Source: a virus
Strand: one strand, 5' to 3'
Length of the DNA: 64,000 nt
Virus record (IMG/VR): IMGVR_UViG_3300032285_001316
Span: 1-64,000 of that record
Part shown: one piece after another, positions 5,756 to 62,382 of the stretch
How the letters are laid out: the number at the start of each line of letters is the position of its first letter
Position numbering within the stretch: the stretch's first letter is position 1
The notes under the pieces: model-generated
Database searches by the model: none
What the model was told of the DNA's origin: nothing
The model's input: only the letters and a program-made list of their open reading frames with translations
Position numbers and translations under genes: made by a program

Positions 5756-5758
5756 TAG

Positions 5759-6985: not shown

Positions 6986-6993
6986 GAGTTATT

Positions 6994-7269
6994 ATGATTT
7001 TTTCAGACAGCAGATACGCTAAAGGACTTGTTACCAAGGTACAGGACCCTAGGAACGGCGTTTATCGCCTAGCGGTTTACCGTAAGTTTCCTACAGCTCG
7101 CGCTCAGTTTTACTTCTACACATGGGTAGAAGGAGATCGCATCGACCGAGTTGCTGCGGACCTATTAGGTAGCCCATCTTTCTGGTGGAAGATCATGGAC
7201 TTTAACCCAGAGATTATTGATCCGTTCAGCATTCCTATTGGTACGACTCTAAGGATTCCGAGTGTCTAG
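6994..7269 (+). CDS. LysM / tail protein X-like baseplate protein
   Basis: EGDRIDRVAADLLGSPSFWWKIMDFNP..IGTTLRIP LysM-like signature. Confidence 0.85.
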   Translation: MIFSDSRYAKGLVTKVQDPRNGVYRLAVYRKFPTARAQFYFYTWVEGDRIDRVAADLLGSPSFWWKIMDFNPEIIDPFSIPIGTTLRIPSV

Positions 7270-8539: not shown

Positions 8540-8541
8540 CA

Positions 8542-8949
8542 ATGACAGAAGTAGCACTTGTTTTGCCATTCAGTTTGAATCCTCAGACTGGAACTATCAT
8601 GACGACTACAAACCAAGACCTTATTTGGTCTAACAGGGTGCGTATTGCCGTAGAAACCGCCCTTGGGGAACGCGTGATGCGCCCTACTTATGGTACAAAA
8701 ATTCCTAATGCCTTGTTCAATACTGTTGACGGATTTGATGACGTTCTTCAAAAAGAAATTGGCAGGGTTTTTGTTGATCAGCTGCCTCTTTTGAAGCTAG
8801 TTTCGATAAGCACGTCACACGACACTGCTTACAATAAACTTTCTGTAAATGTCACGTACCAACTTCCAAACAACACAGAAATTACAACCAAGGCTGGTGT
8901 CATGGTTATTTCCAATGTTAACCCGCCTTACCAGGAGCTTACATCATGA
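8542..8949 (+). CDS. Baseplate wedge protein (gp25/gpW-like)
   Basis: TALGERVMRPTYG signature. Confidence 0.88.
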   Translation: MTEVALVLPFSLNPQTGTIMTTTNQDLIWSNRVRIAVETALGERVMRPTYGTKIPNALFNTVDGFDDVLQKEIGRVFVDQLPLLKLVSISTSHDTAYNKLSVNVTYQLPNNTEITTKAGVMVISNVNPPYQELTS

Positions 8950-19517: not shown

Positions 19518-20765
19518 ATGGCGGCAGACAACGAGTACCGCCTCGTAAGTAAGATCATTCTTGATCGCAACATCATTCCTGTACTGGAACGTGGCATCAA
19601 GGATGACTGGATTGTCGATGACGATCTGCGCCGTGTGTACAAGTTTATTCGTGAGCACTACGCAAACTACCGCGAGGTACCTACAGCCGTAGCGGTCAAT
19701 GATAACTTCCCTAACTTTAAGACTCTTAAGGTTGAGGACACCATCGACTACCTCATTGACAAGATGGTTGAGTTCCGTCGCCGCACCATCACGCGACGCG
19801 GTGTCGAGTCGGTAGTTGAGCAGCTCAATGGTAACGACCACGAGTCAGCGCTCCTAGAGATGAGCAAAGCCCTCACGCTTGTCAACGAGCAGGGCATCGT
19901 AGGTACCACTCACATCGACGTTTCGGCAGACCCAGACAAGTTCTGGACTGAGTACGAGAACGTTCACAACTCTAAGTTCTTAGGTATTCCTACAGGGTTT
20001 AAGAAGATTGATGAAGCCACTGCTGGCCTTCAGGGGGGACAGCTGATTACAATCATTGCTCCCCCAAAGACAGGTAAGTCTCAGATCGCTCTTCGTGTTG
20101 CCGCGAACGTGCATAATGACGGGTTTGTTCCTCTGTTCCAGTCCTTTGAGATGAACAACCATGAGCAGGCTCTGCGCTATAACGCAATGCAGGCACACAT
20201 TTCTACTGCAAACTTGCGTCAAGGAAAGCTTTCTACAGACGAAGAAGACCGTTTCCTCAAGCACCTCGACGCTCTCAAGGAAAGCAAGTCCTTCCACTTT
20301 GTAGACGCGGTTAACGGTCTCACCGTGGACTCGTTGGTGGCTAAAGCAGAGCAGCTTAACCCAGACATTCTTATTGTTGACGGTGTGTACCTGATGATGG
20401 ACCAAGTAACTGGTGAGGCTAACACTCCTCAGGCATTGACCAACATCACACGTGGACTCAAGCGCGTTGCTCAGAAACTAAACATTCCTGTAATCATCAC
20501 TACGCAGACACTGCTATGGAAGATGAAGGGAGGAAAGGTCTCCGCAGACTCTATCGGTTACTCGTCCTCGTTCTTCCAGGACTCTGATGTTATCTTAGGT
20601 CTTGATCCCATTGAAGGCGCAGACGACCTGCGCATGCTTCGCATCGTTCAGTCCCGTAACTCTGCCCCAGAGGAAACCTCCATTACTTGGAAGTGGGACA
20701 CTGGTTGCTTCCACGACGAAGACGCTAGCTGCAAGCACTGCACCACGTTTGGGTACAAGTTCTAA
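19518..20765 (+). CDS. dnaB: Replicative DNA helicase (DnaB-like)
   Basis: GIPTGF..ID..T.G, Walker A APPKTGKS, SFEM, IVDGVYLM, QDSDVILGL. Confidence 0.92.
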   Translation: MAADNEYRLVSKIILDRNIIPVLERGIKDDWIVDDDLRRVYKFIREHYANYREVPTAVAVNDNFPNFKTLKVEDTIDYLIDKMVEFRRRTITRRGVESVVEQLNGNDHESALLEMSKALTLVNEQGIVGTTHIDVSADPDKFWTEYENVHNSKFLGIPTGFKKIDEATAGLQGGQLITIIAPPKTGKSQIALRVAANVHNDGFVPLFQSFEMNNHEQALRYNAMQAHISTANLRQGKLSTDEEDRFLKHLDALKESKSFHFVDAVNGLTVDSLVAKAEQLNPDILIVDGVYLMMDQVTGEANTPQALTNITRGLKRVAQKLNIPVIITTQTLLWKMKGGKVSADSIGYSSSFFQDSDVILGLDPIEGADDLRMLRIVQSRNSAPEETSITWKWDTGCFHDEDASCKHCTTFGYKF

Positions 20766-21763
20766 TGCTTCTTGATATTCCAGCAGCTCTCGATGCCTTG
20801 GGTATGGAGTACATGGAGCACGGGCATGAGGCTAATGCATTATGCCCAGCCCACCTAGCTCGCACAGGAAAAGAAGATAACTCTCCCTCATGGTGGATAA
20901 ACCTTGAGACAGGGCAGCACATCTGCTTCTCTTGTGGTTACAAAGGAAACCTCACTCAACTTGTCTGTGATGTTAACGAGTTCTACATCAAGACATGGGA
21001 CAACAAGTACTCCTATGACTATGACACTGCCCAGGCATGGTTGGCAGATATCTCTTCAGTTCCCATCGAGGAGCTGCTGCAGATGGTTAAGTCCCTACCT
21101 AACCGTATTGAGGCATACCCCAAACCTTTAGAAATGTCTGAGGCTCGTCTTGTTGTTTTTGACGCGCCACCTGCAAAACCCCTTGCAGATCGAAACCTAA
21201 CTCCAGACTCAGCGTCTAAGTACGGCGTGCTGTGGGATAATAAGAAAGCGACATGGATCCTTCCCCTTCGTGAACCAGAGAACCACCGCCTAATGGGGTG
21301 GCAGGAAAAAGGCACGGAACAGCGCACTTTCTTTAACCGCCCAGCTGGCCTACAAAAGGCCAAAACCCTGTTTGGAGTTGATGTCCAGGATGTGGATCTG
21401 GCTATCGTGGTTGAGTCTCCCCTTGATTGCCTTCGTATTGCTTCTGCTGGATATCGCGGAGCGGTGGCTATCTGCGGAGCGACGCCATCAGAAGAACAAA
21501 TCAAAATCATCCGAGGATCCGAACGAGTCATCGTCGCACTAGACAACCCAAATATTGATTCAGCTGGTAAAAAGGGTTGCGAAGAGTTCCGTAAGTTTGC
21601 AAACAAATACGGCATAAACCTGTTCTTTTTCAACTATGGTAAGAGTGGTAAAAAAGACCCAGGTGGTATGACTGATGAAGAAATAGCCTGGGGAATCCAG
21701 AACGCTAAATCGTCAGTACTCGGAGAACTCGCATATGTTTCAGGGGACACTCAAGCCAATTAA
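20765..21763 (+). CDS. DNA primase (zinc finger + TOPRIM)
   Basis: CPAH..PSW..CFSCG zinc finger; VVESPLD, ALDN..D.AG, KDPG TOPRIM motifs. Confidence 0.9.
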   Translation: MLLDIPAALDALGMEYMEHGHEANALCPAHLARTGKEDNSPSWWINLETGQHICFSCGYKGNLTQLVCDVNEFYIKTWDNKYSYDYDTAQAWLADISSVPIEELLQMVKSLPNRIEAYPKPLEMSEARLVVFDAPPAKPLADRNLTPDSASKYGVLWDNKKATWILPLREPENHRLMGWQEKGTEQRTFFNRPAGLQKAKTLFGVDVQDVDLAIVVESPLDCLRIASAGYRGAVAICGATPSEEQIKIIRGSERVIVALDNPNIDSAGKKGCEEFRKFANKYGINLFFFNYGKSGKKDPGGMTDEEIAWGIQNAKSSVLGELAYVSGDTQAN

Positions 21764-34825: not shown

Positions 34826-35359
34826 ATGGCTGGTGCAGTAAACAACTTTTCTCCTCAGCAGAACTGGCAGTCCATTGGTGGTAATGGACTAAACGGGTAC
34901 AACAACCAGGGCGGATATGGTGGCCCCGTAGCTCGTGGTGATCTAGATGCCATTCGTATCGGTACTGGCCGTGTTCCCCAGGCGGAATACCCCGATGGCT
35001 ACCTCGGTACGATCCGTTCACGTCGCGATGACCGCATCCTGGACTCCATTAAGAGTCGCGTAAATCAAAAAGCATATCAACGCGGTGTTCACAAGGGTGA
35101 GCGTGTTGAGCCTTCGGCATACTACTGGACCCCAGACTTTAATGATCAGTCTGGTCTGCAGCGTCAAATGAAGGCCAAGCAGGTTGAGATCAATGGTGTA
35201 ACCGTATGGAAGTCACCCCGATACACCCAGGATGTTCGCCTGGTTCCTGCACCACACCTTGTTAATGACGGTAAGTCCAACATGGTTTCCGATTCTCCTG
35301 GAACCATTAATGTGCAGCGATCCAACCAGCTGAACTACCTGAAGCCAAAGTGGGCCTAA
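34826..35359 (+). CDS. Hypothetical protein
   Basis: AEYPDGYLGTI..RR.DR..YQRGVHKGER; operon context. Confidence 0.7.
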   Translation: MAGAVNNFSPQQNWQSIGGNGLNGYNNQGGYGGPVARGDLDAIRIGTGRVPQAEYPDGYLGTIRSRRDDRILDSIKSRVNQKAYQRGVHKGERVEPSAYYWTPDFNDQSGLQRQMKAKQVEINGVTVWKSPRYTQDVRLVPAPHLVNDGKSNMVSDSPGTINVQRSNQLNYLKPKWA

Positions 35360-35360
35360 T

Positions 35361-35723
35361 ATGAGCCAGTTTGACGGACGTTATGATTACACTAAGCCCT
35401 GGAACAACCAAGGGCCTATTACCCCTGGAGGAAACACTCGGTGGACCTACAACGGTCCCTGGTCCTCCAACGAAGAGCGCCTAACACAGCAGGCCCTCGC
35501 CGTAGCGTTGATTCCTGGCGCTGAATTACAGGAATTGGTGCGCCCGAACCTTCCCCAAATCCAATTGTTCCCACCTCGATTTGGGTATGGCCCCCGTCCT
35601 CAACCAGAGATTGATGACGTTGTAAGTATCGACAGAAACTACGTGGAGCCTCGCGTTTCCTGGTATTCTGGAGGAGTTGGCTCCTACAGCGGTAGCAGCC
35701 GAAATGACTTAGGAGCAAACTAG
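35361..35723 (+). CDS. Hypothetical protein
   Basis: ORF track; operon context. Confidence 0.65.
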   Translation: MSQFDGRYDYTKPWNNQGPITPGGNTRWTYNGPWSSNEERLTQQALAVALIPGAELQELVRPNLPQIQLFPPRFGYGPRPQPEIDDVVSIDRNYVEPRVSWYSGGVGSYSGSSRNDLGAN

Positions 35724-35727
35724 TCCA

Positions 35728-37227
35728 ATGGGTATTGAGCACTTTAACGCAGGGGCCGAAGCAGCACGCGGCAACGAAGCGCCTACACGCGACGCATCTG
35801 TAGCCCGAGATGAACGTGGAAACAGGCAAGTAGTTGACCCAGAAACAGGGATCATTGCTCCCCGCAACCCTAACGCACCAGAAAACCAGGGCCTGCGGAT
35901 GACTCCTGCTGGAAAGACCCCCGCATTTAAGGGAACAGGTAGGGGCCGCGCCACAATATCTGGAGGACGTGCATCGTCGGTTCCCACACGTCCTGCATTG
36001 CCCCACCCAGAATTTATTGATGAAGAGGGTAACCGCCGTGCATCAAACGCACAGCACCAGGCTGAAAACGACGCCGTTCGTTCACAGGTATCTTCCTCTC
36101 AGGCAGAGTGGGACTCCAAGTACGCTCCAAAAAACGCTGCAGGAACTTCTACCCCAAAGCAGGTAGGTCCATCACACCCCACAACCGACCGTAGAGAACT
36201 CTACAATGCAATGAATGAAGGCGGAGGACGTGAGCTAAAGAGCAGTAAAAAGCTCCTACAAGAAGCAAATGAGCACGCCAGCGTACTCCAGGGCCACATT
36301 ACTCAGCTTATGGCAACACACGGAGATCATCCCGTAGTAGGTCCGCACATCCAGCGAGCACAGCGGTCACTTGTGGCGGCACAAAAAATCATGTCAGACA
36401 GCAGTCCTGCACGAAAAGACGGCGCAAACTCTATGTCGTATGGTCGTTACGCCAATACCGAGACGATGCAAAAGGCTCGACCAGCAGTCGCAGATATTCT
36501 TAAGCACGTTCTTGATGCGCACGATCACCTAACTCATAGCGATGTAACATCCGCAGGAGTATCTGCCCCCAGCGTTCCTCGCGTAGCATTAGAGCAAAAC
36601 CACGCCATCGCAGAGGTGCAAGCGCGACACCCCAAGCTAAACTTCAAGCAAAGAGGTAAGGCTCCCAAGATTGTTGACTGGGGTCCCGTAGGTAAAGTCG
36701 ACATGACCACTACTCATGGGCAAAACCTTGCGGCAGCCGCACGTGAGCAGCACGAAGCCAAGACTCCTGGAGTCGACGTTAATGTTTCTGGTGAGCTGGG
36801 CGCTCCACAAGGAACTGCGCGCGTTCGTAAACGTTTTGAGAAAATGCCTGTTTCTGAAAGCACAAAAATAAATCGAAGCGGTGCCGCTCAGCAGCCTCGT
36901 CGTCGTCCAGCAAAGGCAGCCAGGGCAACCTCGTCAGCAAATATAGACGCTCCCAAAGCTAACGTTGAAACTAGAGCATTTACTACAAAAGATAGTAAAA
37001 AAGTAAAGGCTGATCAGGACCAGCCTACGCGTAAGCCACTACCGCAGGTAGAGGACGGTAAAACGTACGCTCCAGACCAGATTTACACACAACTTCGTAT
37101 GCCTAAGGAAAACCCTGTAGCAGCTGGGCGTGTTGCAGAACGCAAGGCAAAGCGTAAGCCAGCCCAGACTCCTGAAATTAAGTCTGCACTGAAAAACATT
37201 GACAAGAAGCTTCGCGGCGGTAAGTAA
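35728..37227 (+). CDS. Large disordered basic protein with N-terminal EHFNAG motif
   Basis: 499 aa, Ala/Lys/Arg/Pro/His-rich. Confidence 0.75.
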   Translation: MGIEHFNAGAEAARGNEAPTRDASVARDERGNRQVVDPETGIIAPRNPNAPENQGLRMTPAGKTPAFKGTGRGRATISGGRASSVPTRPALPHPEFIDEEGNRRASNAQHQAENDAVRSQVSSSQAEWDSKYAPKNAAGTSTPKQVGPSHPTTDRRELYNAMNEGGGRELKSSKKLLQEANEHASVLQGHITQLMATHGDHPVVGPHIQRAQRSLVAAQKIMSDSSPARKDGANSMSYGRYANTETMQKARPAVADILKHVLDAHDHLTHSDVTSAGVSAPSVPRVALEQNHAIAEVQARHPKLNFKQRGKAPKIVDWGPVGKVDMTTTHGQNLAAAAREQHEAKTPGVDVNVSGELGAPQGTARVRKRFEKMPVSESTKINRSGAAQQPRRRPAKAARATSSANIDAPKANVETRAFTTKDSKKVKADQDQPTRKPLPQVEDGKTYAPDQIYTQLRMPKENPVAAGRVAERKAKRKPAQTPEIKSALKNIDKKLRGGK

Positions 37228-38195
37228 TGGCCAAGTTTAGGGTCGGTAAAAGCGGAAAGGCCACCACGGTTTCTGGTCAGGCCGCTGTTAGTGATGTAAC
37301 TAACAAACGAGAGGCGCAGGAAACCGAGCTGAAAGCTAGAGACAACGCGTATTCCACCCTAAACGCAGCAAAGCCAAACCTAAAGTCACTGGGTTTTGTG
37401 GGCCGTGATGCAGCTAATCCTCAAGGTGGTATGGCATCGCAGTTGACCAAGCAAATTGGTAAGGCAAGTTCCATCAGCAACAACCCCATGCACGGTCTCG
37501 CCATGACACGTATTGGCGATGAGCTAATGACGCGTATTGGTCACGCCGTTGCAGGTAGTGAGTCGGACGCAGAAGCCCTGGCAACCAGCCACGCACACAT
37601 TGACAACGCTCGCGCAGATATTGCTGCTCATCAGGCAGCTCACGGAGCAGGAAACACCAAGGCAGCCCTTGGCTACCTGCACAGGGCGGGGATGCACCTG
37701 TCTAGTGCAGTAAACTCAATGCCTGAAGGATCCAAGGAAATCCTCAAGGACTCCTGGACTCCTGCACAAAAGACACCGTGGCGAGTTCCCACAACAGAAA
37801 AAGACATAACTGGTTCTGGGTCTGTAAAGCAAGAAGCAGCTGATTTTGTTTCCTTGGCAAATGCCCACAGAGACATCAACAACATTGTTGGCGCATACCA
37901 CGATCATGTTAAGGACATGACTGGTAGCCTGCCAGAAGGCATGGAGCGTCCCAAAAAGGTATCGAATACCACCAATCTAGACCTCAGTCGACCAGTAATT
38001 GCCACTCCTTTGCGTTCATACGTACATGAGTCAAAGCACCGTGATATTGCCGCCAAGGGCATGGAAGACGCAATGAAAGAGCGCATTCAGCAGATGGCGG
38101 AGGATGCCGTTGCATCCGCATCAGAACTGGGTGGGTCCTCCTCTGCAAAACTTGGAGAGCATTTTAACGCTGGCGCAAAACACGGGAGGTCATAG
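37227..38195 (+). CDS. Ala/His-rich protein with C-terminal EHFNAG motif
   Basis: 322 aa; TAATG coupling. Confidence 0.75.
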   Translation: MAKFRVGKSGKATTVSGQAAVSDVTNKREAQETELKARDNAYSTLNAAKPNLKSLGFVGRDAANPQGGMASQLTKQIGKASSISNNPMHGLAMTRIGDELMTRIGHAVAGSESDAEALATSHAHIDNARADIAAHQAAHGAGNTKAALGYLHRAGMHLSSAVNSMPEGSKEILKDSWTPAQKTPWRVPTTEKDITGSGSVKQEAADFVSLANAHRDINNIVGAYHDHVKDMTGSLPEGMERPKKVSNTTNLDLSRPVIATPLRSYVHESKHRDIAAKGMEDAMKERIQQMAEDAVASASELGGSSSAKLGEHFNAGAKHGRS

Positions 38196-38395
38196 TGTTT
38201 GATGGAGATGGTGCAGATACCCTAGAGCTGCAAGCCTGGAAGATCGCACAAAATCAAATTGAGTACCGTGGGTCAGCCCCCTGTCCTACATGCGGTGTAA
38301 TCATGAACCCAGTGGAGTTTATGTACAGCAAGGGCCTGTGTGCACCTTGTTATGAAAACCGCATGGCAGGACGAGTAAAGCGAAAGCTCGCATAA
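38195..38395 (+). CDS. Small zinc-binding protein
   Basis: CPTC..CAPC. Confidence 0.6.
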   Translation: MFDGDGADTLELQAWKIAQNQIEYRGSAPCPTCGVIMNPVEFMYSKGLCAPCYENRMAGRVKRKLA

Positions 38396-38733
38396 TGGCC
38401 GAGATAGAGGCTGCATACGACATTCACCAGCGTGCACGTCACCTCGCGACGTTTAGTCAAGATCCCAAAGTAGTCCGTTATGCTAACCTCGCAGCAGACC
38501 ACGCTGAAAAGGCTAATGGAGCCCACAACACGGGAGACACCGTTGGTGCTAGCGCTCACTTAGGTGAGGCAGCAAAGTATTTGCAGTCCGCCGCTACCCT
38601 TCATACTGGTAAAATGAACCGTGGAGATGTCGCATCCCCAGAGATTTTGGACGTGGCGCACCTCGGTAAAGCACAAGAGCTGCACCAGAACTACGTAGAC
38701 GAAATTAACAAAGGAAAGAACGATGGCCGTTAA
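38395..38733 (+). CDS. His/Ala-rich helical protein
   Basis: Shares AH..G....A..HL..A...L.SA pattern with 37227-38195. Confidence 0.65.
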   Translation: MAEIEAAYDIHQRARHLATFSQDPKVVRYANLAADHAEKANGAHNTGDTVGASAHLGEAAKYLQSAATLHTGKMNRGDVASPEILDVAHLGKAQELHQNYVDEINKGKNDGR

Positions 38734-38935
38734 CACAAGCCGTTCAATGAACGAAAGCCTTGCTGAAGGAGCAACCGACGGTAAGTACCGTAAGGCGCGC
38801 CCAGATACTGAGGTCCTCGACATCGCAGGTCACGAAAAGACCATGGACAACCGTCAGACACTGCACCCATTTGCAGGTTACGGTTTCTCCACATCTGAAG
38901 CTCCTGCAGAAGCACGCGTAAACCCAGGCAAGTAA
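38723..38935 (+). CDS. Hypothetical small protein
   Basis: SD AAGGA. Confidence 0.6.
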   Translation: MAVNTSRSMNESLAEGATDGKYRKARPDTEVLDIAGHEKTMDNRQTLHPFAGYGFSTSEAPAEARVNPGK

Positions 38936-39129
38936 TGTCTGCCCCAATGCCGCAGCCTCCTAAACCTGGGTTGCCAGTAAAAAACGCAACGCAGTTTCCC
39001 GTATCATCCCCCTCACAGGCCATGGGAGCTGCCAAACAGCGGTTACTTTCGCACATTCGCACAACCGCCGCGTTGAAAAAACTGTAGGAACATAGTAGAC
39101 TAATCCGTAACACTAATTAGGAGCATTAC

Positions 39130-39699
39130 ATGTCGAAGTTGGTCGACCCAACGGGTAAGCCACTCATCGGATCCAAAGAGATCGATGGACCAGTTATCCG
39201 TTTGCTGCGTTGTTTTGTATGCGAATCGTGGGAAGAGCTGCCCGATTATGAGGGCCCATCCAACAAGGATTACCTGTTGGAGATTACCCTAGAGAAGCAC
39301 GTGTTTCCATCGGGGGACCCACACGTAGGAAAGCTGTTCAAAGTACCCGTTAAGACGTGGGCAAACGCCGAACAGCGCAAAGCAGTCCTAGACAATTTGG
39401 GTTCAGGGTCACGTGGTCTGGATGATCTGGACCCAGAGAAGTCGTTTTACGACACCAAGATGACGTTTGCCGCAGATGCAATGACGTGTTGGAAGCAGCA
39501 CAACAGCCCCAAGCAGGATTGCAGCGATTACCAAAAGGATTCCAAGCGCCTGTTGCCTAACACGGCAAAGGAGCGTGCAGACCTAAACCTGCCCAAGCCA
39601 GAGCATCTGGATGGCCCAAAGATTTATACATGCAATTTCTGTCCCGTTCACTCAATGGTCCTGCAGCGCAAACGTGCGTTTCTGGGCATGTACGATTAA
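39130..39699 (+). CDS. Hypothetical Cys/His-rich protein
   Basis: CFVC, CW..H..C, CNFCPVH; SD GGAG. Confidence 0.7.
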   Translation: MSKLVDPTGKPLIGSKEIDGPVIRLLRCFVCESWEELPDYEGPSNKDYLLEITLEKHVFPSGDPHVGKLFKVPVKTWANAEQRKAVLDNLGSGSRGLDDLDPEKSFYDTKMTFAADAMTCWKQHNSPKQDCSDYQKDSKRLLPNTAKERADLNLPKPEHLDGPKIYTCNFCPVHSMVLQRKRAFLGMYD

Positions 39700-39713
39700 T
39701 AAGGAAAAACACA

Positions 39714-40019
39714 ATGGAAGACAACAAGGTAGTAGAGACGGTTTACACCGTTACCATTTTCACCGATGGCACATTTTCGGCAGCACTAGAGCAGCCCGAA
39801 GCACCCGTCGAGGTTCAGCGTACCGCAACAGTGTACGATGTCCTGAGCATTTCGCAGGCACTGGCAAAGGAAATTGAGCACTCACAGCTGACCGACCGCA
39901 TCATCATGTCGCTGGTTCAGGTACTGCAGGCAATGGCCCCCCAGACACCCGCAGAGACCGTAAAGGACGCCCTAAAGGAGCGCGGTATTGACCCAGAAAG
40001 CACCGCAGCAGCCAACTAA
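39714..40019 (+). CDS. Hypothetical protein
   Basis: SD AAGGA. Confidence 0.65.
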   Translation: MEDNKVVETVYTVTIFTDGTFSAALEQPEAPVEVQRTATVYDVLSISQALAKEIEHSQLTDRIIMSLVQVLQAMAPQTPAETVKDALKERGIDPESTAAAN

Positions 40020-40028
40020 ACTGGGTAT

Positions 40029-40913
40029 ATGAGTTATTTTGGCGAAGAACCCACGAGTTATTTCAGTGCACCCGCAAACACACTAGATCCAAAACTGTTT
40101 GAGGGACGCACACTGCGTTCGTGGGCACGCCAAGGAATCCTGTCATTACTGATGGATTTCCTAAACCTGCACTACCGTCACCCAGAGCTGTGGGCACAGC
40201 CCTGGTTGGCGGGGTCAGGTGTCTCATACCAATGGAGCGCCGCCAGAGAGCCAGGAGACCTGGATTGTTTGGTAGGCGTTGATTTCGTTCAGTTCCGTAA
40301 GGCAAACCCAGAGTTTGCAGGATTGCTGGACAAAGAAATCGCCGCAATGCTAAACGAAGAGTTCCACGAAAACCTTCAGTTGCAGACAAGTAACTGGAAC
40401 GGTTACGAGCTGACGTTTTATGTTAATCCTTCAGCCACAGACATCAGGGCAATTAAGCCATACGCAGCGTACAACCTGAAGCACGATGACTGGACAGTAA
40501 GCCCAGACCCAAATGCACACCCAGTAGAAAACGCTGAATGGGACCGCATCGTTCAGAGTGACGCAGAAGCAGCCAATCAGTTCCACACGCAGTTTACAGG
40601 AGCATTACAGGACATTCAGGGGTCTAGGAACAGCCCCATGCAGCGTAATGCGGAAAATAAGCTGACAATGATTGCCGCCAGTGCCAATGCGTTGTACAAC
40701 ATGATTCATGAGAATCGTTCAATGGCGTTTTCCGCAACAGGTGAGGGGTACAACGATTTCCACAACTACCGTTGGCAGGCAGGAAAGCGTTACGGAACCA
40801 TCCAAAAGCTGCGTGGTATCCGCGAATACATGAAGAATAACCTGTCCTACGGCGTAGAGATGCCTGATGCGGACACAATGATTCGTCGTGCAGCGACGTA
40901 TAGGAACATTTAG
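40029..40913 (+). CDS. Pol-beta-superfamily nucleotidyltransferase
   Basis: hG[S] motif LAGSGVSYQW followed by DLDC (DxD) and a third acidic residue in YELTFYV; leaderless (TAAACT-6nt-ATG). Confidence 0.75.
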   Translation: MSYFGEEPTSYFSAPANTLDPKLFEGRTLRSWARQGILSLLMDFLNLHYRHPELWAQPWLAGSGVSYQWSAAREPGDLDCLVGVDFVQFRKANPEFAGLLDKEIAAMLNEEFHENLQLQTSNWNGYELTFYVNPSATDIRAIKPYAAYNLKHDDWTVSPDPNAHPVENAEWDRIVQSDAEAANQFHTQFTGALQDIQGSRNSPMQRNAENKLTMIAASANALYNMIHENRSMAFSATGEGYNDFHNYRWQAGKRYGTIQKLRGIREYMKNNLSYGVEMPDADTMIRRAATYRNI

Positions 40914-41023
40914 TGTCCATTACCGACTACTGTCATTGGTGCGGACACGAATTACTGAAGGGTATCTGCACCGAGGATTATTGCAAGTGTGATTGCAATG
41001 GAGCTGACGACGAGGATTATTAA
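40913..41023 (+). CDS. Tiny Cys-rich peptide (36 aa)
   Basis: GTG start overlapping the previous stop; CHWC..C....C.C.C. Confidence 0.45.
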   Translation: MSITDYCHWCGHELLKGICTEDYCKCDCNGADDEDY

Positions 41024-41025
41024 TA

Positions 41026-41514
41026 GTGCATGTACTGGTGGATTTAGATGGTGTACTGCGAGGCGGTGACAAAGATCAACCGATTTCGCAAGGAATTATT
41101 ATGGTTGGATCGCTGAGTGCGTGGAACCAAATCACGCTGATGTCGCCGTTAAACGCGAAGCAGACACAACAGTGGTTGGATGTAAATAAGATTGTTGAGT
41201 TCGACCGTATTATCGACAGTTCAGTAGGACTGGTTGATGAGTCGTTGGCAGAACGTCAGATTAGGTTTGCACGTTCCGTTGGTCCTGTAGACCTGTTTAT
41301 TACCAACAGCCCCACGAGCTGGGCATTTGCGTTCAATCAGGGAATTGCATGCGTGATGTTTGGAGTCCCCTCCTACACACGCCCAGAGTTTAGGCCAGAT
41401 GCGCCCCGCAGAGTACGCGCATGGAGCGATATTGAGCAGGCCATTGAGGAGCAAAATGCGTTAAGGACGCAAGATGCCCGCCTGACACGAACAGAGGGGC
41501 TGATGTTCGAGTGA
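41026..41514 (+). CDS. HAD-superfamily protein
   Basis: N-terminal VLVDLDGVL (DxDG). Confidence 0.7.
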   Translation: MHVLVDLDGVLRGGDKDQPISQGIIMVGSLSAWNQITLMSPLNAKQTQQWLDVNKIVEFDRIIDSSVGLVDESLAERQIRFARSVGPVDLFITNSPTSWAFAFNQGIACVMFGVPSYTRPEFRPDAPRRVRAWSDIEQAIEEQNALRTQDARLTRTEGLMFE

Positions 41515-42998
41515 CCGACGTTATATTTGGTGGCGTAGAGATTCCGTCAAACCGCACATTACTAGAAGCCAGTGGAGTAACCAATGTGTTGCTGAATTAT
41601 TGGGGACTTAGACGAAGAGGATTACCCAAGACAAAACCATACCTCATTGGGGAGCATTTTTACCCAGAGATGAAGGTATGGGTTGATAGTGGAGCAACAC
41701 AGGCAGACAAAGCAAACCTGTCAGCACGTGAGCTGGAAGAATACGCAGCAGATTACGAAGAGTTCATTGCCCTGAATTATGACCGCATTGAGGGGTTCAC
41801 AGAGTTTGATTCCCAAGTACTGGGGTTGCCAGCCATCGTGCAGAACCGTGCAGTATATGAAAACGACCCAAAACTGTGGGTTGTCTGGCACGAAGGGTAC
41901 AACGTAGCGTTATTGGAGCAGTGGGCCCAGGAATGGCAGAACATCGCCATTCCAGGCAGCGCAATCGACACGGTTACAACACTGGCCGCCATAGTCCGTA
42001 GGATTAAAGGAGCGTACGACGTACAGTTCCATGGATTGGCCGCAGCAAAACCAGATAACCTGAGATCAATACCGTTTGATACGGTGAGCACATTGTCGTG
42101 GTTGTCGCCAATGCGGCGAGGAGAGACAATCGTGTGGGACGGAAGTAAATTGGTCCGTTACCCAAAAAAAATGAAAGCCCAGGCACGATTGAGGTACAAA
42201 ACAGTCGTGGAGAAAGCTGGGCTAGATTTCAGAAAGTTCGTCGACGATGACACAAAAGAAGCCACAAAAGTCGCAATTTGGTCCTACATACAGTTAGAGA
42301 AGTCCATGTTAAACAACCAAAAGGGCCCAAAAAAGCCCGTAGTATCTGATAATAGTGATGACACCCTATACACAGGTTTGATGGAAACTGGTATAGGGGG
42401 TTCTAATAACAGTGTGTCCGAAATGCGGAAACCTGAAACCACAGAAATCATCCAAAGAGACCCTCAAGAGATAGTTTCCATGCCTGTTTTTGGGTATGAA
42501 ATGAAGACAGTTGTCGAGACAGAAGACGGTCGCGATATCCTGAAGGATGTCCCAGTTGTGCAGAGCAATTCGGGCAGTTTACGACAGTGCGATACGTGTT
42601 TTGTATCCTCAAATTGCCCCGCATTCAAGCCGTCAAATACGTGTGCGTTTAGTTTGCCAGTAGAGGTAAAGACAAAGGACCAATTAAAGGCGTTGTTGAC
42701 CACGATCGTTGAAATGCAGGGCCAAAGAGTGGCATTCATGCGTTTTCAGGAAGAGCTAAACGGTGGATACGCTGACCCAAATGTGTCACAGGAAATCGAT
42801 CGTTTGTTCAAGTTGGTGGGTAACATGAAGGACCTAGAGACCAACAAAGAGTTCGTTCAGATTACTGCCTCAAGGGAGACATCTGGAGGAGTCCTTAGTG
42901 CCATTTTTGGTGATAAAGCATCCGCTCTAAAGGAGATGCAGAAGCCCCTGGACGAGGAGCAAACCACCATCATCATTAACAACAGCCTAGAGAAGTAG
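41511..42998 (+). CDS. Fusion: divergent TGT/DpdA-like TIM-barrel domain + Cys4 and helical C-terminal domain
   Basis: WVDSGA, EFD, VWH, HGL, PFDTVSTLSW motifs in the order seen in phage TGT-like proteins; C-terminal CDTC..CP.F..C. Confidence 0.55.
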   Translation: MTDVIFGGVEIPSNRTLLEASGVTNVLLNYWGLRRRGLPKTKPYLIGEHFYPEMKVWVDSGATQADKANLSARELEEYAADYEEFIALNYDRIEGFTEFDSQVLGLPAIVQNRAVYENDPKLWVVWHEGYNVALLEQWAQEWQNIAIPGSAIDTVTTLAAIVRRIKGAYDVQFHGLAAAKPDNLRSIPFDTVSTLSWLSPMRRGETIVWDGSKLVRYPKKMKAQARLRYKTVVEKAGLDFRKFVDDDTKEATKVAIWSYIQLEKSMLNNQKGPKKPVVSDNSDDTLYTGLMETGIGGSNNSVSEMRKPETTEIIQRDPQEIVSMPVFGYEMKTVVETEDGRDILKDVPVVQSNSGSLRQCDTCFVSSNCPAFKPSNTCAFSLPVEVKTKDQLKALLTTIVEMQGQRVAFMRFQEELNGGYADPNVSQEIDRLFKLVGNMKDLETNKEFVQITASRETSGGVLSAIFGDKASALKEMQKPLDEEQTTIIINNSLEK

Positions 42999-43063
42999 TA
43001 TCTGATAGGAGCACGCGTGTAGGCATGGAACGTGTGTCCCCCGCAAATCGCGCCCAACACAAA

Positions 43064-43098
43064 CAAATGCCCCCCACCATAAAGTGAGGGGCATTTGC
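43064..43098. terminator. Stem-loop between convergent + and - transcription units
   Basis: caaatgcccc...ggggcatttg. Confidence 0.7.
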
Positions 43099-43106
43099 TA
43101 TTGGTG

Positions 43107-43382
43107 CTAGTGCGTATAGTTAATTGGCTCGAGAGGTATGTGGAACTCTCGGCGGTAATCTGCTCGCTCTGGAGCGGTCGCTCCACCCCAGATACCGTCG
43201 CGCTCATGACGTATTCCATGATCGAAACAGTTGAGCTTCTCAGAACATCCCGCACATATCTGCTTGGCTAGGACTACGCTCTCAATGTGAGAGTCGCTTC
43301 CATTAGGAAAGAAGATATCGGGAGTGTCTACTTTGGTACATGCTGCTTGGTCGTAATCGATGTTGATGCTGTATTGCGTCAT
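43107..43382 (-). CDS. whiB: WhiB-family regulator
   Basis: AAC..PDIFFP..AKQICAGC....C..GIWGG.T..ER. Confidence 0.9.
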   Translation of the reverse strand: MTQYSINIDYDQAACTKVDTPDIFFPNGSDSHIESVVLAKQICAGCSEKLNCFDHGIRHERDGIWGGATAPERADYRREFHIPLEPINYTH

Positions 43383-43636
43383 CGCTTCTTCCTTGTCTGC
43401 TTGTGCTTGATCTCGATAAAGCCATTCATGCGTAGATCCTTTCTGATCTTCATCACTACGCGCCAGTCACTAGGTGAGCTGGAAGAGTAGAACAACCCTC
43501 CATTAGGATTGGTCCACTTGAGGTGAGAGTTTTTAGTGATGGTCACTAGCCACCCTTGCCTCTCGGCATCCTTGATTAGTTCGTTGACATCTTTGTTAGT
43601 TGTGAGTCCCACAGATTCTCCTTTTGTTGTTCCCAA
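43379..43636 (-). CDS. HicA-like protein
   Basis: LIKDAERQGW.V..TKNSHLKW..P.G...SSSPSD.R; dsRBD-like HicA pattern with the conserved His. Confidence 0.65.
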   Translation of the reverse strand: MGTTKGESVGLTTNKDVNELIKDAERQGWLVTITKNSHLKWTNPNGGLFYSSSSPSDWRVVMKIRKDLRMNGFIEIKHKQTRKKR

Positions 43637-43860
43637 TCAAACATTACCTCATACGTCTGACGTATAAGCTCACTGGTCGGCATACCAAGAGCAGAGGCAA
43701 TAACCTCAACCATTTCTGATGAGGCGTCTTTCTGTCCACGTTCAACTTCGCTTAGATAGCTTAATGCGATGAACGCCTTCTTGCATACATCTCGCAAACC
43801 AAGCCCTTGCTTTAGTCGTTCGGTCCGCATGACATACCCAAGTGCTGTTTTAAATAACAT
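43576..43860 (-). CDS. XRE HTH regulator, ClgR-like
   Basis: LRDV...A.I.LSYLSEVERGQKDASSE, close to the actinobacterial ClgR HTH. Confidence 0.8.
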   Translation of the reverse strand: MLFKTALGYVMRTERLKQGLGLRDVCKKAFIALSYLSEVERGQKDASSEMVEVIASALGMPTSELIRQTYEVMFDWEQQKENLWDSQLTKMSTN

Positions 43861-43862
43861 TG

Positions 43863-44144
43863 TTACCGTCCTTCGTACTGCCACATGACTGCGTTGCACA
43901 GTGAGTGCACTGCGCCCTCAGTCATGCCTGTATCGTGATTGTGCTGTAGGTGTACGGGGTACTTAAGGAACTGAGGAGGAAATAAGTTCCAATTGACTTC
44001 CTTGTTACGTACTTCCTCTGAAGGAGACCAGTTAAGCGCTTTGCCACAGTAGTAGCACTTACCTTCTTGTAGCTTGACGTACTCTTCACGTACTTCCTTG
44101 CGTTCAAGTGTGGTTAGCTCCTCATAGTTAACAGGTAGTTCCAT
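43863..44144 (-). CDS. Endonuclease VII-like protein
   Basis: Q.GKCYYC..HLQHNHDTG...G.VH..CN. Confidence 0.7.
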   Translation of the reverse strand: MELPVNYEELTTLERKEVREEYVKLQEGKCYYCGKALNWSPSEEVRNKEVNWNLFPPQFLKYPVHLQHNHDTGMTEGAVHSLCNAVMWQYEGR

Positions 44145-44155
44145 TGTTTGCTCCT

Positions 44156-44629
44156 TTACACAGGCCAGATATATTCGTAGTCAGTTGGTTGGTAGCCTGG
44201 ATCTTCAGCCCAACCGAACTGTGAGTACCACTCGTAGTCCTTAACAAGTAGCGCCTTGCGGTGAGTACTTGCGATGCTCTCGTAGTCAGGACCAGTCATC
44301 CACAGTGGGGCAACGTCTACAAAGGTATCGTGAGACGCCTGAATAGTTGCTGTTGCCTTTTCACCGATGGTTGACTTGAAGCCACGTCGCTTCCACTCCT
44401 CCACCATCGTGACGATGTAGTTGTAAAGGACGAGCTCGTGACCGCGCCACATCTTAGCTGCGGGATGGTTGTACCAGCCCTTGGGTTCACGGTGATTACC
44501 TTGTGGGTCAAGCTTGAGGTTGGTCATAAGTATCTGCCAGCCCTCAAGTGCTTGCTTGTTAAGGCGTTTGTTGTCTAGTACTTTAGCGATGTCCGCGAAG
44601 GAACTCGTCAAAGGAACGAACGTCTGCAT
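44156..44629 (-). CDS. Pyrimidine-dimer DNA glycosylase-like (MSMEG_6728 family)
   Basis: MQTF.P..LD.KRL.KQ..E..QI..HPA..MW.G..EW..RG..SHR..L..KD. Confidence 0.8.
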   Translation of the reverse strand: MQTFVPLTSSFADIAKVLDNKRLNKQALEGWQILMTNLKLDPQGNHREPKGWYNHPAAKMWRGHELVLYNYIVTMVEEWKRRGFKSTIGEKATATIQASHDTFVDVAPLWMTGPDYESIASTHRKALLVKDYEWYSQFGWAEDPGYQPTDYEYIWPV

Positions 44630-45197: not shown

Positions 45198-45581
45198 TTA
45201 CGCAGCCCCTTGATAGAACCGCGTAATGTCTCCCACACGTCGTGCACGCGCGACATCTGCATCCTCCTCTTTCTTAGTAAGGACCTTCTTACGTTTCTCC
45301 ATGGCACGGATGTGCTCTGGGATTATTGACTTGTCTCGTTCCATGATTCGGCGCTCATATTGTGTTGCGCCTCCCCAAATACCAAACTCCTCTTCGTTGG
45401 TAAGTGCGTAGTCTAAACACTGTTGCAGGATGTCACAGCGAGCACACACGTCGATTGCTTTAAGCATCTTGTGTGTCTTCTCACTTCCAGCACTAAACAC
45501 TTCAGGAAAGAATATGTCTGGGTCAGTGTTTTGACAGTTAGCCTCATCGGCATTGGGTACGTAGTTGATGAGGTTGAACAT
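45198..45581 (-). CDS. whiB: WhiB-family regulator
   Basis: ANC..TDPDIFFP..CARC....C..GIWGG.T..ER. Confidence 0.9.
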   Translation of the reverse strand: MFNLINYVPNADEANCQNTDPDIFFPEVFSAGSEKTHKMLKAIDVCARCDILQQCLDYALTNEEEFGIWGGATQYERRIMERDKSIIPEHIRAMEKRKKVLTKKEEDADVARARRVGDITRFYQGAA

Positions 45582-48977: not shown

Positions 48978-50399
48978 TTAGTTAGTGGAGTACTTACCGA
49001 TGCTAACGCCAAGCTCGTTGGCGATAGTAGGCGCTTCAGCATCAAAGCGCATCTTGATAGCGTCACGCTCACCGTCCATCTTGGGGTAGTTGGACAGGAG
49101 AGAGTTGACCGCGAACTCAAAGTTCAGGCTCGTAGCATGAGACACAAAGTTCTTGAGGATACGAGTGGACATTGGTACAGAGAACTCATCGTTCATCTCG
49201 GATGCTTCACGGATATTGCTAGCAAATCCTAGGAGCGTGAAGGATGGGATGAAGTTACTCTCGATGTTGGTATCGTAGGTGAACTCCAACTTAGTACCGA
49301 AGCGGTCAATCAGCGCGGCATCTTGACGGCTAGTACCTGTGTACCCAATGCCTGTGTTCTGGTCGGCAATGAATAGCACGTCGGGGTGTACCTTGATGAC
49401 CTCATTGAGTGGGTCGATACGCAACTCGCGCTCTTCCAAGAGGCTAAGGAACAACGGAGCAGCCTTAGGAGTCATACGCGTCAACTCGTTGATGAGGATA
49501 ACACTAGGCTGTTGGATTGCCGTAGCCAGTTGGCTGTACTTCCAGCGGGTAGTGTTACCTACGCCTGTCGGTACGAACCTACCCTGTGTAACTGTCTGGT
49601 CAATCTGCTGGGTACATTCGATGGTTACGAATGGCAAGCCCTTGATTGCCGCGTAGTTACGGGCACTCGATGTCTTACCTGTACCAGCATCACCAGTAAG
49701 CAAGACATTGTCTTGCTTGCTACGTGCGTTGTCGTATATCTGCTCCTCAGTAAGTCCAAAGAACTTACGTGTGAAGTAGGGCTTGACATCTGGCACGGTA
49801 AGCACTGCGCCATTCTCTGCGGTGCTGGCAACGATTGTGCTGTAATCCATGTCTGGCTCACTTTCTGTTGTCGGAGGCAATCCCACGGTGGGAAGCTCGT
49901 AGATAGGCTCACTCAAAGGTTGCGAAGCAACCCCCGCGTAAGCGGGCTCTAGTACTACTGGCTGTTCTACGGGAACAGGAACAACCTGAATGCTAGGGCT
50001 TACTACCACTGGGGTAGCAACAAGATACTTAGCAAGTACTGCTGGGTTAGCGATCGCGGCATCCATCACTTCGTCATAGACTTCGTGGAATGGGCGACCA
50101 CTTACCGTATCCATATCCTTTACTGTGCGTACAAGCTTCTGTACTAGCACGGTAGGGGTGATTGGGAACTGAAGCATCTGGTAATCGGCTGGGGTAAGGG
50201 CTACTGACATAGGCACGCCTACGCTATCACCTACGAAGCTCAGCACATCTCCACCAGATAGCTCTCGCCAAGCACCTGCCGTACCCCTAAGCCCCTTACC
50301 ATCACGGGTGAACCTACGGATATTGCCGTCTTGTAGAGGCACAATAACTACCTGCTGAATACCTGTTGGGGTATCTTGCTGAAGGATAGTCGCGAACAT
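48978..50399 (-). CDS. MoxR-type AAA+ ATPase (CbbQ/NorQ/CobS-like)
   Basis: GDAGTGKT, ILINE, DAALIDRF, STR; adjacent to the VWA gene. Confidence 0.88.
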   Translation of the reverse strand: MFATILQQDTPTGIQQVVIVPLQDGNIRRFTRDGKGLRGTAGAWRELSGGDVLSFVGDSVGVPMSVALTPADYQMLQFPITPTVLVQKLVRTVKDMDTVSGRPFHEVYDEVMDAAIANPAVLAKYLVATPVVVSPSIQVVPVPVEQPVVLEPAYAGVASQPLSEPIYELPTVGLPPTTESEPDMDYSTIVASTAENGAVLTVPDVKPYFTRKFFGLTEEQIYDNARSKQDNVLLTGDAGTGKTSSARNYAAIKGLPFVTIECTQQIDQTVTQGRFVPTGVGNTTRWKYSQLATAIQQPSVILINELTRMTPKAAPLFLSLLEERELRIDPLNEVIKVHPDVLFIADQNTGIGYTGTSRQDAALIDRFGTKLEFTYDTNIESNFIPSFTLLGFASNIREASEMNDEFSVPMSTRILKNFVSHATSLNFEFAVNSLLSNYPKMDGERDAIKMRFDAEAPTIANELGVSIGKYSTN

Positions 50400-50686
50400 T
50401 ACTTATCTCCTTTGTTGTTTAGAACAATGCGCTTGTATTGGACATTGTCTGTGTGGTTGTTTACGTACTCGCTATCAAACTCGATGCGACTACTGGGTAG
50501 GTCATTGTCTAACAACCTATCCTCTAAGTACCTGACTAGGTCAAGCACTGCGTAGGGGTCATTACTTGTGTCGAAGTACAGGGCATCTAGTACCGTGTAC
50601 AACTCTCGTGCCGTAAACACTACGTCTACGGTTGTGCTGTCGATGGGGTCTAGAGTCTCTACAACCTCATCATCTATCTCTAACAT
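50399..50686 (-). CDS. Acidic hypothetical protein
   Basis: SD AAGGAG; directly downstream of the hammerhead. Confidence 0.65.
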   Translation of the reverse strand: MLEIDDEVVETLDPIDSTTVDVVFTARELYTVLDALYFDTSNDPYAVLDLVRYLEDRLLDNDLPSSRIEFDSEYVNNHTDNVQYKRIVLNNKGDK

Positions 50687-60978: not shown

Positions 60979-61055
60979 GCCCCCTTAACTCAGTTGGTCA
61001 GAGTGCGATACTTGTAATATCGAAGTCAGGCGTTCGAACCGCCTAGGGGGCCCCA
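60979..61055 (+). tRNA. tRNA-Thr(UGU)
   Basis: Acceptor GCCCCCT/AGGGGGC, anticodon arm CGATA-CTTGTAA-TATCG, T loop GTTCGAA, encoded CCA. Confidence 0.93.
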
Positions 61056-61091: not shown

Positions 61092-61550
61092 ATGAAACTT
61101 TGTCATGTATGTAAAGAAGGCCCAGTAGTTAATTCTGGAAAGTGTCGCCCATGCTACAACGCCTACATGCTTACGTACACTACTGCACGATATCACCGTC
61201 GCCGCAAGGAAGCAATTGAAAAGCTGGGCGGAGCGTGTGTTGTTTGCGGTGCTGTTGACGGGCTAGAGTTTGACCACAAAGACTCTAAAGATAAGGCTTT
61301 GGAAATCAGTAAGGTTCTGACTCACTCTTGGGCAAAGATCGACACGGAACTGTCTAAGTGCCAGCTACTATGCAATAGCTGCCACGTAGAAAAGAGTTTC
61401 CGAGAAGGAGACATTGAGTCTGTAGAGCATGGCGGTGGAAAAACAGGTAAACGAAATTGTCGTTGCGAACTTTGCAAGCCACTAAAGAACGCTTACATGC
61501 GAGAACTTAAAAATAAACGACGCACAGCCCTAGAACTACAGAAAGAGTAA
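61092..61550 (+). CDS. HNH endonuclease next to tRNA, leaderless
   Basis: LGGACVVCG..LEFDH.D..K..C.LLC..CH; TATACT-6nt-ATG. Confidence 0.85.
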   Translation: MKLCHVCKEGPVVNSGKCRPCYNAYMLTYTTARYHRRRKEAIEKLGGACVVCGAVDGLEFDHKDSKDKALEISKVLTHSWAKIDTELSKCQLLCNSCHVEKSFREGDIESVEHGGGKTGKRNCRCELCKPLKNAYMRELKNKRRTALELQKE

Positions 61551-61908: not shown

Positions 61909-62382
61909 ATGAGTAGAAACAACGAGTTCGAGACACAGCGTGCGCTACACAAGCGCAACGACACTGTCGTATTCGATCTCGACGGCACTATTGCCGATAC
62001 CATGACTTACGAAAAGCACCACAAGGCTAAAAAGGGCAAGAACGAAGACTTTGCCAAGGAAGCTCTTGATGTAGGTGTCAATGACGACATCCTAAAAAAA
62101 ATGAAAAAGGCCGCTGATCAGGGAAAAAACGTTGTTATCCTGACTGCTCGCTCTGCTCACTACCGCGATGAAACCAAGAAGTGGCTTCATGAGAACGGTG
62201 TTCCTCACGACGCTTTGGTTATGCGTCCTACCGATAACACAGACAAAGACGCCAAAGTAAAGCGCAATTTGCTTGAGGAAAACATCCTTCCAGAGTTCGA
62301 TGTCAAGAAAGCATACGACGATAGGGCAAAAAATCGTCGAATGTTTGAGAAACTTGGTATTAACGCTAAAGGAGTAAAGTAA
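61909..62382 (+). CDS. HAD phosphatase (PNKP 3'-phosphatase-like)
   Basis: FDLDGT, LTAR, T..WL, L.MRP, K, YDDR; N-terminal MSRNNEF motif. Confidence 0.85.
   Translation: MSRNNEFETQRALHKRNDTVVFDLDGTIADTMTYEKHHKAKKGKNEDFAKEALDVGVNDDILKKMKKAADQGKNVVILTARSAHYRDETKKWLHENGVPHDALVMRPTDNTDKDAKVKRNLLEENILPEFDVKKAYDDRAKNRRMFEKLGINAKGVK

Follow-up and report, generated by a model that had tools for sequence, protein, structure and literature searches.

A six-gene phage operon purged of CTY on one strand

What could remove a three-base word from a single operon of a phage genome, and from one strand only? The question is raised by a 4-kb zone in the genome of an uncultured myovirus, IMG/VR virus record IMGVR_UViG_3300032285_001316 (93,151 bp, with a terminal repeat of 123 bp), the first 64 kb (64,000 nucleotides) of which form the window analyzed here. 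A previous inspection of the letters alone (the sequence-only reading) had noted that CTT and CTC, together CTY, are avoided on the plus strand of six genes and of the DNA between them, that the zone is sharp-edged, and that AAG and GAG (together RAG) remain abundant on the same strand. It proposed that a protein reads a short oriented motif and that the block must be invisible to it. The zone and the genes of the cassette it covers are the following, gene calls being based on open reading frames (ORFs):

39047..43127, plus strand: CTY-purged zone; 14 CTY in 4.08 kb, RAG normal on the plus strand
39130..39699, plus strand: Zn-ribbon-like 189-aa protein with conserved CxxC...CxxC cysteines and no family match; CTY 2 vs 20.6 expected
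39708..40019, plus strand: 103-aa protein; CTY 1 vs 9.3 expected
40029..40913, plus strand: Pol-beta/MNT-like nucleotidyltransferase (NTase), 294 aa, with an invariant GS...DLD motif; CTY 3 vs 29 expected
40913-41023, plus strand: small ORF (36 aa, six of them cysteines; MSITDYCHWCGH...CKCDC...) that separates the NTase gene from the HAD-like gene
41026..41514, plus strand: HAD-like protein, 162 aa, with an N-terminal DLDGVL read from the sequence and no match to a hidden Markov model; CTY 1 vs 18.6 expected
41511..42998, plus strand: 495-aa protein with a predicted tRNA-guanine transglycosylase (TGT) fold; CTY 7 vs 45 expected

An exact recount of the plus strand at 39061-43120 agrees with the numbers first reported: CTT occurs four times (40374, 40429, 41607, and 42894) and CTC ten times, eight of these as CTCA. 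For comparison, plus-strand genes at 17-36 kb contain about 15-16 per kb of each triplet. The purge is strand-specific, as AAG (89) and GAG (87) are present at normal numbers on the plus strand of the same interval (RAG 176). The edges are as sharp as had been described, with the last CTY before the zone at 39046 and CTY density back at 43128, inside the first minus-strand gene beyond a hairpin. The two longest CTY-free gaps of the entire 93-kb genome are located in the zone and measure 941 nt (40429-41370) and 820 nt (41643-42463), the latter confirming a CTY-free stretch previously estimated at ~41650-42460. The number of six genes is also correct once the 36-aa ORF is counted.

The depleted word is really the dinucleotide CT, which is found at 0.45 of background with a gradation by the next base (CTT < CTC < CTA < CTG), and its depletion is present in all three frames. 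Leucine codons CTT and CTC number 5 where 46 are expected, NCT codons (Ser, Pro, Thr, and Ala) 17 instead of ~130, and NNC|T codon junctions 18 instead of 63. About 150 nt of non-coding DNA in the unit, including a 108-nt 3' region, are devoid of CTY, as is the 3' region when taken as 42999-43127. The claim that all frames and intergenic DNA are affected is thus borne out.

Codon-shuffled controls did not reproduce the observed counts. When the five long proteins were kept fixed and codons were drawn from the genome's own usage, 123.3±8.3 CTY were expected and 14 observed (z -13.1), and the corresponding values for CT were 252.9±10.3 and 102 (z -14.7). When synonymous codons were shuffled inside the block, so that its codon usage stayed unchanged, junction CT amounted to 56.7±5.4 against the 18 observed, with 0/2000 shuffles as low, and C|TT junctions were absent where 20.6 were expected. 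Because junctions are depleted even relative to the within-block shuffle, what is avoided is an oligonucleotide, and effects of codons or tRNAs do not account for it. Selection therefore acts on a short oriented motif, and neither codon usage nor a palindromic double-stranded DNA (dsDNA) site is the cause. This part of the original proposal stands, whereas the reader protein and its mechanism are inferred.

A per-gene scan of ~125 ORFs gave z-values of -3.6 to -9.7 for the five long cassette genes and about -3 for three other ORFs, and the major structural protein genes are not purged. Outside the cassette, few ORFs go beyond z -3; one of them is a 95-aa gene (50399-50686, minus strand) at the start of a MoxR-like AAA/VWA pair, with a mild sense-strand depletion (CT 11 vs 19.4 expected, z -3.2).

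Codon families without CT have the same usage in the block as elsewhere in the genome, and the replacements for purged codons increase in proportion to their normal usage (NCT to NCA, NCC, and NCG). Several simpler causes were considered and rejected. Classical restriction-site avoidance does not fit counts of 89 AAG and 87 GAG against 4 CTT and 10 CTC, as one strand only is affected. Recent transfer from a CTY-poor donor, an alternative that the sequence-only reading had itself raised, is contradicted by the native non-CT codon preferences and by the synteny of the cassette in all relatives. A codon or tRNA bias, including one linked to expression, is excluded by the junction test and contradicted by the unpurged structural genes, and a deamination-type mutation bias by the facts that T is not elevated and that the replacement codons follow normal usage.

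The purge follows transcript polarity

The borders of the zone coincide with features of a predicted transcription unit:

39073..39101, plus strand: sigma-70-like promoter match TTGAAA-17-TAGACT (consensus match only), at the left zone edge
43066..43098, no strand assigned: hairpin AAATGCCCC...GGGGCATTT between convergent units, read from the sequence
35000..39046, plus strand: upstream flank, partly depleted, above all in CTT (4-8 per kb)

The promoter-like element is the sole sigma-70-like match within 38-44 kb. A similar -35/-10 pair is found 5' of the first cassette gene in the related loci L002, L023, L007, and L004; L009 and L017 differ in that a terminator hairpin and then a -10-like box precede the cassette. 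The hairpin at 43066-43098 is likely a bidirectional terminator, and the purge ends just past it. Upstream of the cassette, the genes at 37227-39087 show a mild effect (z -1 to -3).

Relatives were compared as a first set of 24 loci and then as the best 80 among 338 relatives in which this cassette is present, with 62 usable loci. Where a co-oriented class II ribonucleotide reductase (RNR) gene lies downstream, its first ~300-375 codons are almost CTY-free and the remainder is partly depleted. The purge reaches 1-1.7 kb into this gene, and its fading point varies among lineages with RNR proteins only ~85% identical. In 8/10 purged loci the first 1 kb of the co-oriented RNR gene contains 2-17 CTY/kb, compared with 24-47 in unpurged relatives. 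Where the downstream genes are convergent, as in the window, their plus strand contains 41-77 CTY/kb in 6/7 purged loci and 39-55 in unpurged ones. The purge thus enters a co-oriented gene and halts at convergent genes, indicating that the effect follows the transcript sense strand and not the DNA position. It depends on transcript polarity, and its edges are at the promoter-like site and the hairpin.

In L007 an HNH endonuclease gene (11503-12084, minus strand) is inserted between the TGT-like and RNR genes and contains AAG once and AAA 13 times. Being poor in AAG, it has a partly purged antisense (plus) strand, as expected if plus-strand read-through RNA matters. Antisense read-through, with a RAG-free antisense RNA as the selected molecule, was considered separately and rejected, since the promoter-distal half of the RNR gene, nearest to the convergent genes, is the less purged half.

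The same polarity bears on processes tied to a DNA strand or position, such as primase sites, packaging, or ejection. The phage encodes a DnaG-like primase (20765-21763), and DnaG-type primases start at CTN triplets, the classic one being CTG. Yet CTG is the least avoided of the four triplets, and the plus-strand purge ends abruptly where gene orientation flips, which speaks against purely positional priming, packaging, or ejection. Taken together with the trivial causes treated above (foreign origin, expression-linked codon bias, and mutation bias), this class of explanation is highly improbable and already largely refuted. The suggestion in the sequence-only reading that primase, terminase, or ejection machinery must not act on the block is accordingly disfavored, as the effect is tied neither to a physical strand nor to a position.

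Maintenance of the purge by selection in several lineages

In the 62 usable loci, CTY of the cassette relative to the upstream genes ranges from 0.11 to 1.7. Thirteen cassettes are strongly purged and 15 intermediate, so that the depletion is kept in some homologous blocks, and it is absent in 34/62. Same-strand RAG is ~1.0 in all relatives, and the purged words are constant across them (CTT, CTC, GCT, ACT, and TCT). A search of the unpurged lineages for any other missing word found none. In the complete genomes G001, G003, and G004 the cassette genes are the most strongly purged genes, and a fourth complete genome has a normal cassette. In a FastTree tree of the TGT-like protein, the trait clusters, with exceptions, in a clade of at least ~66% identity to the window phage.

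At conserved residues with four- or sixfold codon choice, the window phage and its closest relative have 46% identical codons, and their residual CTY positions are mostly unshared. With synonymous sites near saturation and the residual CTY unshared, the purge must be maintained by current selection; it is kept up in several lineages and is not a historical residue. Since 34/62 orthologous cassettes are unpurged, the pressure is external and not intrinsic to the proteins or to cassette activity.

The loci L062 and L063 (cassette ~5600-9480; RNR 9596-11638), are purged more than the window (CTC 3 vs 48, CTT 8 vs 53), over ~6 kb that include the first ~900 nt of the RNR gene.

Gene content was compared with the trait as well. 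Between four purged genomes and one unpurged genome, only small ORFs, a Zn-ribbon protein, and a ClgR-like helix-turn-helix (HTH) regulator differ in presence, and across 44 loci no correlation was seen between neighboring genes and purge.

The cassette proteins, the phage, and its host

When families of the cassette proteins were sought in Pfam, PHROGs, NCBIfam, PADLOC, PDB profiles, and the ESM Atlas, phrog_887 (TGT-like) was the sole match. It is obtained with the 495-aa protein (E 7e-66), whose N-terminal ~265 residues are predicted to adopt the TIM-barrel fold of tRNA-guanine transglycosylases (TGT/DpdA-like); a Foldseek comparison with the Zymomonas mobilis (Z. mobilis) TGT gave E 5e-6 and prob 1.0. 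Over residues ~270-388 there is a long low-confidence linker and, after it, a conserved cysteine cluster (C360, C363, C369, and C378), and a helical tail is also predicted. The Pfam TGT model does not match the barrel in the five complete genomes of the group. QueC (PF06508), the one preQ0 supply gene searched for, is likewise absent from these five genomes. Methyltransferases of families PF01555 and PF02086, the only methyltransferase families searched for, occur in G003 alone and are missing from G000, G001, G002, and G004.

The NTase has a predicted C-terminal three-helix bundle and a structural match to 1ylq (Z 7.1 over residues 35-150), and its Foldseek matches to other NTases are weak. 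The start of the 36-aa ORF overlaps the NTase stop and its end is 3 nt short of the HAD-like start, so the apparent intergenic gap between these two genes is probably coding. The labels NTase, HAD, and TGT-like, which originate from the sequence-only reading, are supported by motif or fold and are used here at that level only.

The phage carries genes for tail sheath, tube, and baseplate at 0.1-12.6 kb. A long plus-strand replication and recombination operon encodes an initiator, a DnaC-like loader, a DnaB-like helicase, the DnaG-like primase, a helicase, PolA, UvsX, a Cas4-like nuclease, and RuvC. Beyond the zone lies the convergent minus-strand operon. Positions of these and of further genes are as follows:

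20765-21763, within the plus-strand replication operon: DnaG-like primase
43107-43382 and 45198-45581, minus strand: WhiB-family genes, convergent operon beyond the zone
43576-43899, minus strand: ClgR-like HTH regulator, within the same convergent operon
43863-44144, minus strand: endonuclease VII-like protein
44156-44629, minus strand: pyrimidine-dimer DNA glycosylase
61092-61550, plus strand: HNH endonuclease
61909-62382, plus strand: HAD-type polynucleotide kinase/phosphatase-like protein

The nearest cultured relatives are Streptomyces phages, among which BRock is distant (its PolA and TGT-like protein are each ~36% identical to those of the window phage), and a megablast search of the purged block against cultured phages gave 0 matches. 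The two WhiB genes, the ClgR-like regulator, and the kinship to BRock point to an actinobacterial host. A scan of window positions 1-64000 against Rfam at gathering thresholds yielded a tRNA-Thr(TGT) at 60979-61052 as the only match; no hammerhead ribozyme near 50.7 kb attained its gathering score.

RNA or DNA as the molecule read

The explanation that we favor, with slightly less than even confidence, is that the operon mRNA has been shaped to escape an RNA nuclease or RNA modifier that reads CUY. We infer that the agent reads RNA, that it cleaves or modifies this RNA, and that expression of the cassette is required during the agent's activity. Selection would keep the six-gene transcript (39.1-43.1 kb) nearly devoid of 5'-CUY-3', with a weaker effect on CUA and CUG. 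The agent, an endoribonuclease or an RNA-modifying enzyme, would read the word on single-stranded RNA (ssRNA) independently of the ribosome. It would most likely be a defense or toxin of the actinobacterial host, present in the hosts of certain lineages only, which would account for the patchiness of the purge. Each leftover CUY site would be a chance of cleavage followed by exonucleolytic decay. Cleavage in the co-transcribed 3' flank would also expose the operon to exonucleases, with an effect that falls with distance, and together these steps would lead to a near-complete purge in the operon that fades over ~1-2 kb of co-transcribed flank. Among the mechanisms offered by the sequence-only reading, an RNA enzyme that reads CUU/CUC and spares these transcripts gives the best fit on account of the sense-strand polarity, although the agent itself is postulated.

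The simplest account of why a single operon is protected would be that its products are needed while the agent is active. MNT antitoxins are known to neutralize RNase toxins. One possibility is that the MNT-like NTase neutralizes an RNase toxin; alternatively, the NTase and a HAD phosphatase could heal RNA ends. Only tentatively, and with distinctly more doubt, do we suggest the fuller scheme, in which actinobacteria or their phages possess an undescribed factor acting on CU(U/C) in ssRNA and the cassette is a countermeasure, by toxin neutralization or RNA repair, that is CUY-free so as to be expressed under attack.

Several observations weigh against an RNA-level explanation. A CUY-specific RNase or RNA modifier was sought in the phage and nothing recognizable was found, and we know of no enzyme with this specificity. 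All other phage mRNAs are rich in CUY, the protection being limited to one operon. According to local folding, the residual CUY sites have below-average predicted accessibility, but the same applies to other pyrimidine triplets and to CUY of unpurged relatives, so that it is no lower than composition accounts for. In L017 the purge covers the 5' genes but spares the TGT-like gene, and in L013 it spares the first gene; the extent of the protected unit therefore varies by lineage. Finally, a transcription-coupled effect on DNA would give identical polarity.

Such an effect could arise on the template strand, if G or A within 5'-RAG-3' were nicked or bulkily modified there and a RAG-free template stayed readable for RNA polymerase. 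The agent might be a phage system with the TGT-fold protein as a component or a frequently cutting nickase of the Nt.CviQII (R^AG) kind. Avoidance of AG in general, with RAG strongest, matches Nt.CviQII (R^AG) and M.CviQII (AG) (PMC3017599). The motifs of phage DpdA proteins are of dinucleotide size, namely GA and GA plus GGC (PMC10484667, PMC7544227), and a TGT-fold protein is encoded in the operon itself. The strand preference of the purge with respect to transcription and its edge on the promoter side are compatible as well. However, a block on the template cannot affect a gene upstream of it, and no selection is expected beyond the needed genes, yet the RNR gene downstream of the cassette is purged for 1-1.7 kb with subsequent fading. 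A variant with nicking plus resection predicts a RAG purge in the adjoining convergent genes, and is contradicted by their normal composition. QueC, a Pfam TGT match, and a conserved DNA methyltransferase were all not found in the five complete genomes within the searches described above, and the same cassette is present in unpurged relatives. As a check of generality, two known phages were examined: GA is not locally depleted across the dpdA cluster of the GA-modifying phage CAjan, and Streptomyces phage BRock showed no CT purge. The earlier suggestion of a modified or nicked template RAG thus keeps a compatible motif but does not predict the downstream purge, and we consider it unlikely.

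The displaced non-template strand, exposed in the transcription bubble or in an R-loop, could also be attacked by a CTY-preferring ADP-ribosyltransferase, deaminase, or nuclease acting on single-stranded DNA (ssDNA). Such attack would show the polarity that the RNA model predicts and would likewise be confined to the transcription unit, and ssDNA modifiers of the DarT type with short motifs do exist. Damage to DNA would nevertheless be equally harmful in any transcribed unit, and yet other operons, including those of the major structural proteins, are unpurged. For a deaminase, moreover, T is not raised, and NCT codons have been replaced according to normal usage. We regard attack on the non-template strand as improbable.

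A different DNA-level explanation is avoidance of the protospacer-adjacent motif (PAM) of a type I-E CRISPR system, common in actinobacteria, whose PAM series is AAG, GAG, and then TAG. Clearing the template strand of these would remove the protospacers with CRISPR RNAs (crRNAs) complementary to the mRNA or the non-template strand, and the observed hierarchy AAG≈GAG > TAG > CAG resembles type I-E preferences. On the other hand, the strong PAM ATG is not avoided (CAT observed/expected 1.10), AGG (CCT) is only partly depleted, and the general NCT and CT purge exceeds any PAM. DNA interference acts in both orientations whereas the avoidance is confined to one strand, and protection of 4% of the genome would confer no immunity. 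PAM avoidance therefore has very little probability in our estimate.

Comparison with known systems

The best-known messages that lack a short word are those related to mRNA interferases. The mqsRA message is poor in GCU, the target word of the GCU-specific MqsR. ACA-less mRNAs are translated in cells that express MazF, and the MazF toxins of actinobacteria have CU-rich cleavage sites, among them U^CCUU and UU^CCU (PMC5408214). The phage operon resembles these cases in that its sense strand lacks a three-base word in all frames, which would leave the message translatable while others are cut. It also has several properties of a target-word-free transcript, as the avoidance concerns the sense strand only, is independent of frame, includes the untranslated parts, and extends as far as the predicted transcription unit. 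It differs in being a natural 4-kb six-gene phage operon with CUY as the word and no toxin-antitoxin pair, and in a purge whose strength varies among related phages and which reaches into co-transcribed flanks.

CmdTAC is an anti-phage defense that ADP-ribosylates mRNA at GA dinucleotides (PMC11618068). It reads a two-base word on single-stranded mRNA and is thus the kind of agent that would favor word-free transcripts, but its word is GA and not CU, and the system belongs to E. coli and T-even phages.

On the DNA side, the pair from chlorovirus NYs-1 consists of Nt.CviQII, which nicks R^AG, and M.CviQII, which methylates AG (PMC3017599). The word is the same on the complementary strand, where RAG > TAG > CAG are avoided in the phage operon, although avoidance alone is no proof of an enzyme. 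The pair differs in belonging to a eukaryotic algal virus and in acting on both strands of dsDNA, and no homologous methyltransferase was found in the phage group by the searches made. The polarity pattern suits RNA better than DNA action of this type.

Restriction-site avoidance in phages typically concerns words of 4-8 bp, mostly palindromic and on both strands, and the first-entering DNA of T7 and T5 is site-free. In both situations target words of a host enzyme would be removed from phage DNA, sometimes in one block; here the word is of 3 nt, is missing from one strand, and is tied to transcript polarity.

The phage DpdA proteins that insert 7-deazaguanines are specific for GA and GGC in CAjan and for GA in iggy (PMC10484667, PMC7544227). 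They share with the cassette a TGT-fold protein in an operon of the phage replication module and a specificity of dinucleotide scale in the DpdA family. The predicted fold is consistent with a DpdA-type system at the level of the fold. Differences are the missing Pfam TGT match and QueC, and the lack of a local purge in CAjan over its own cluster.

If the purge is the footprint of an unseen agent, it would specify CUY on the sense strand, a likely RNA substrate, and an operon that must survive. A host-phage conflict would become directly testable, and a widespread cassette would gain a biological context. Screens for local polar k-mer purges could similarly reveal RNA-targeting defenses and counter-defenses in metagenomes. 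To our knowledge, no phage has been described in which a three-base word is purged from one strand of a single operon and kept out of it over long divergence. Compared with the systems above, the phenomenon is known in kind, as target-word avoidance, and appears new in its form, in which a three-base word is purged from one strand of one operon in a polar and graded manner that spills into the flanks.

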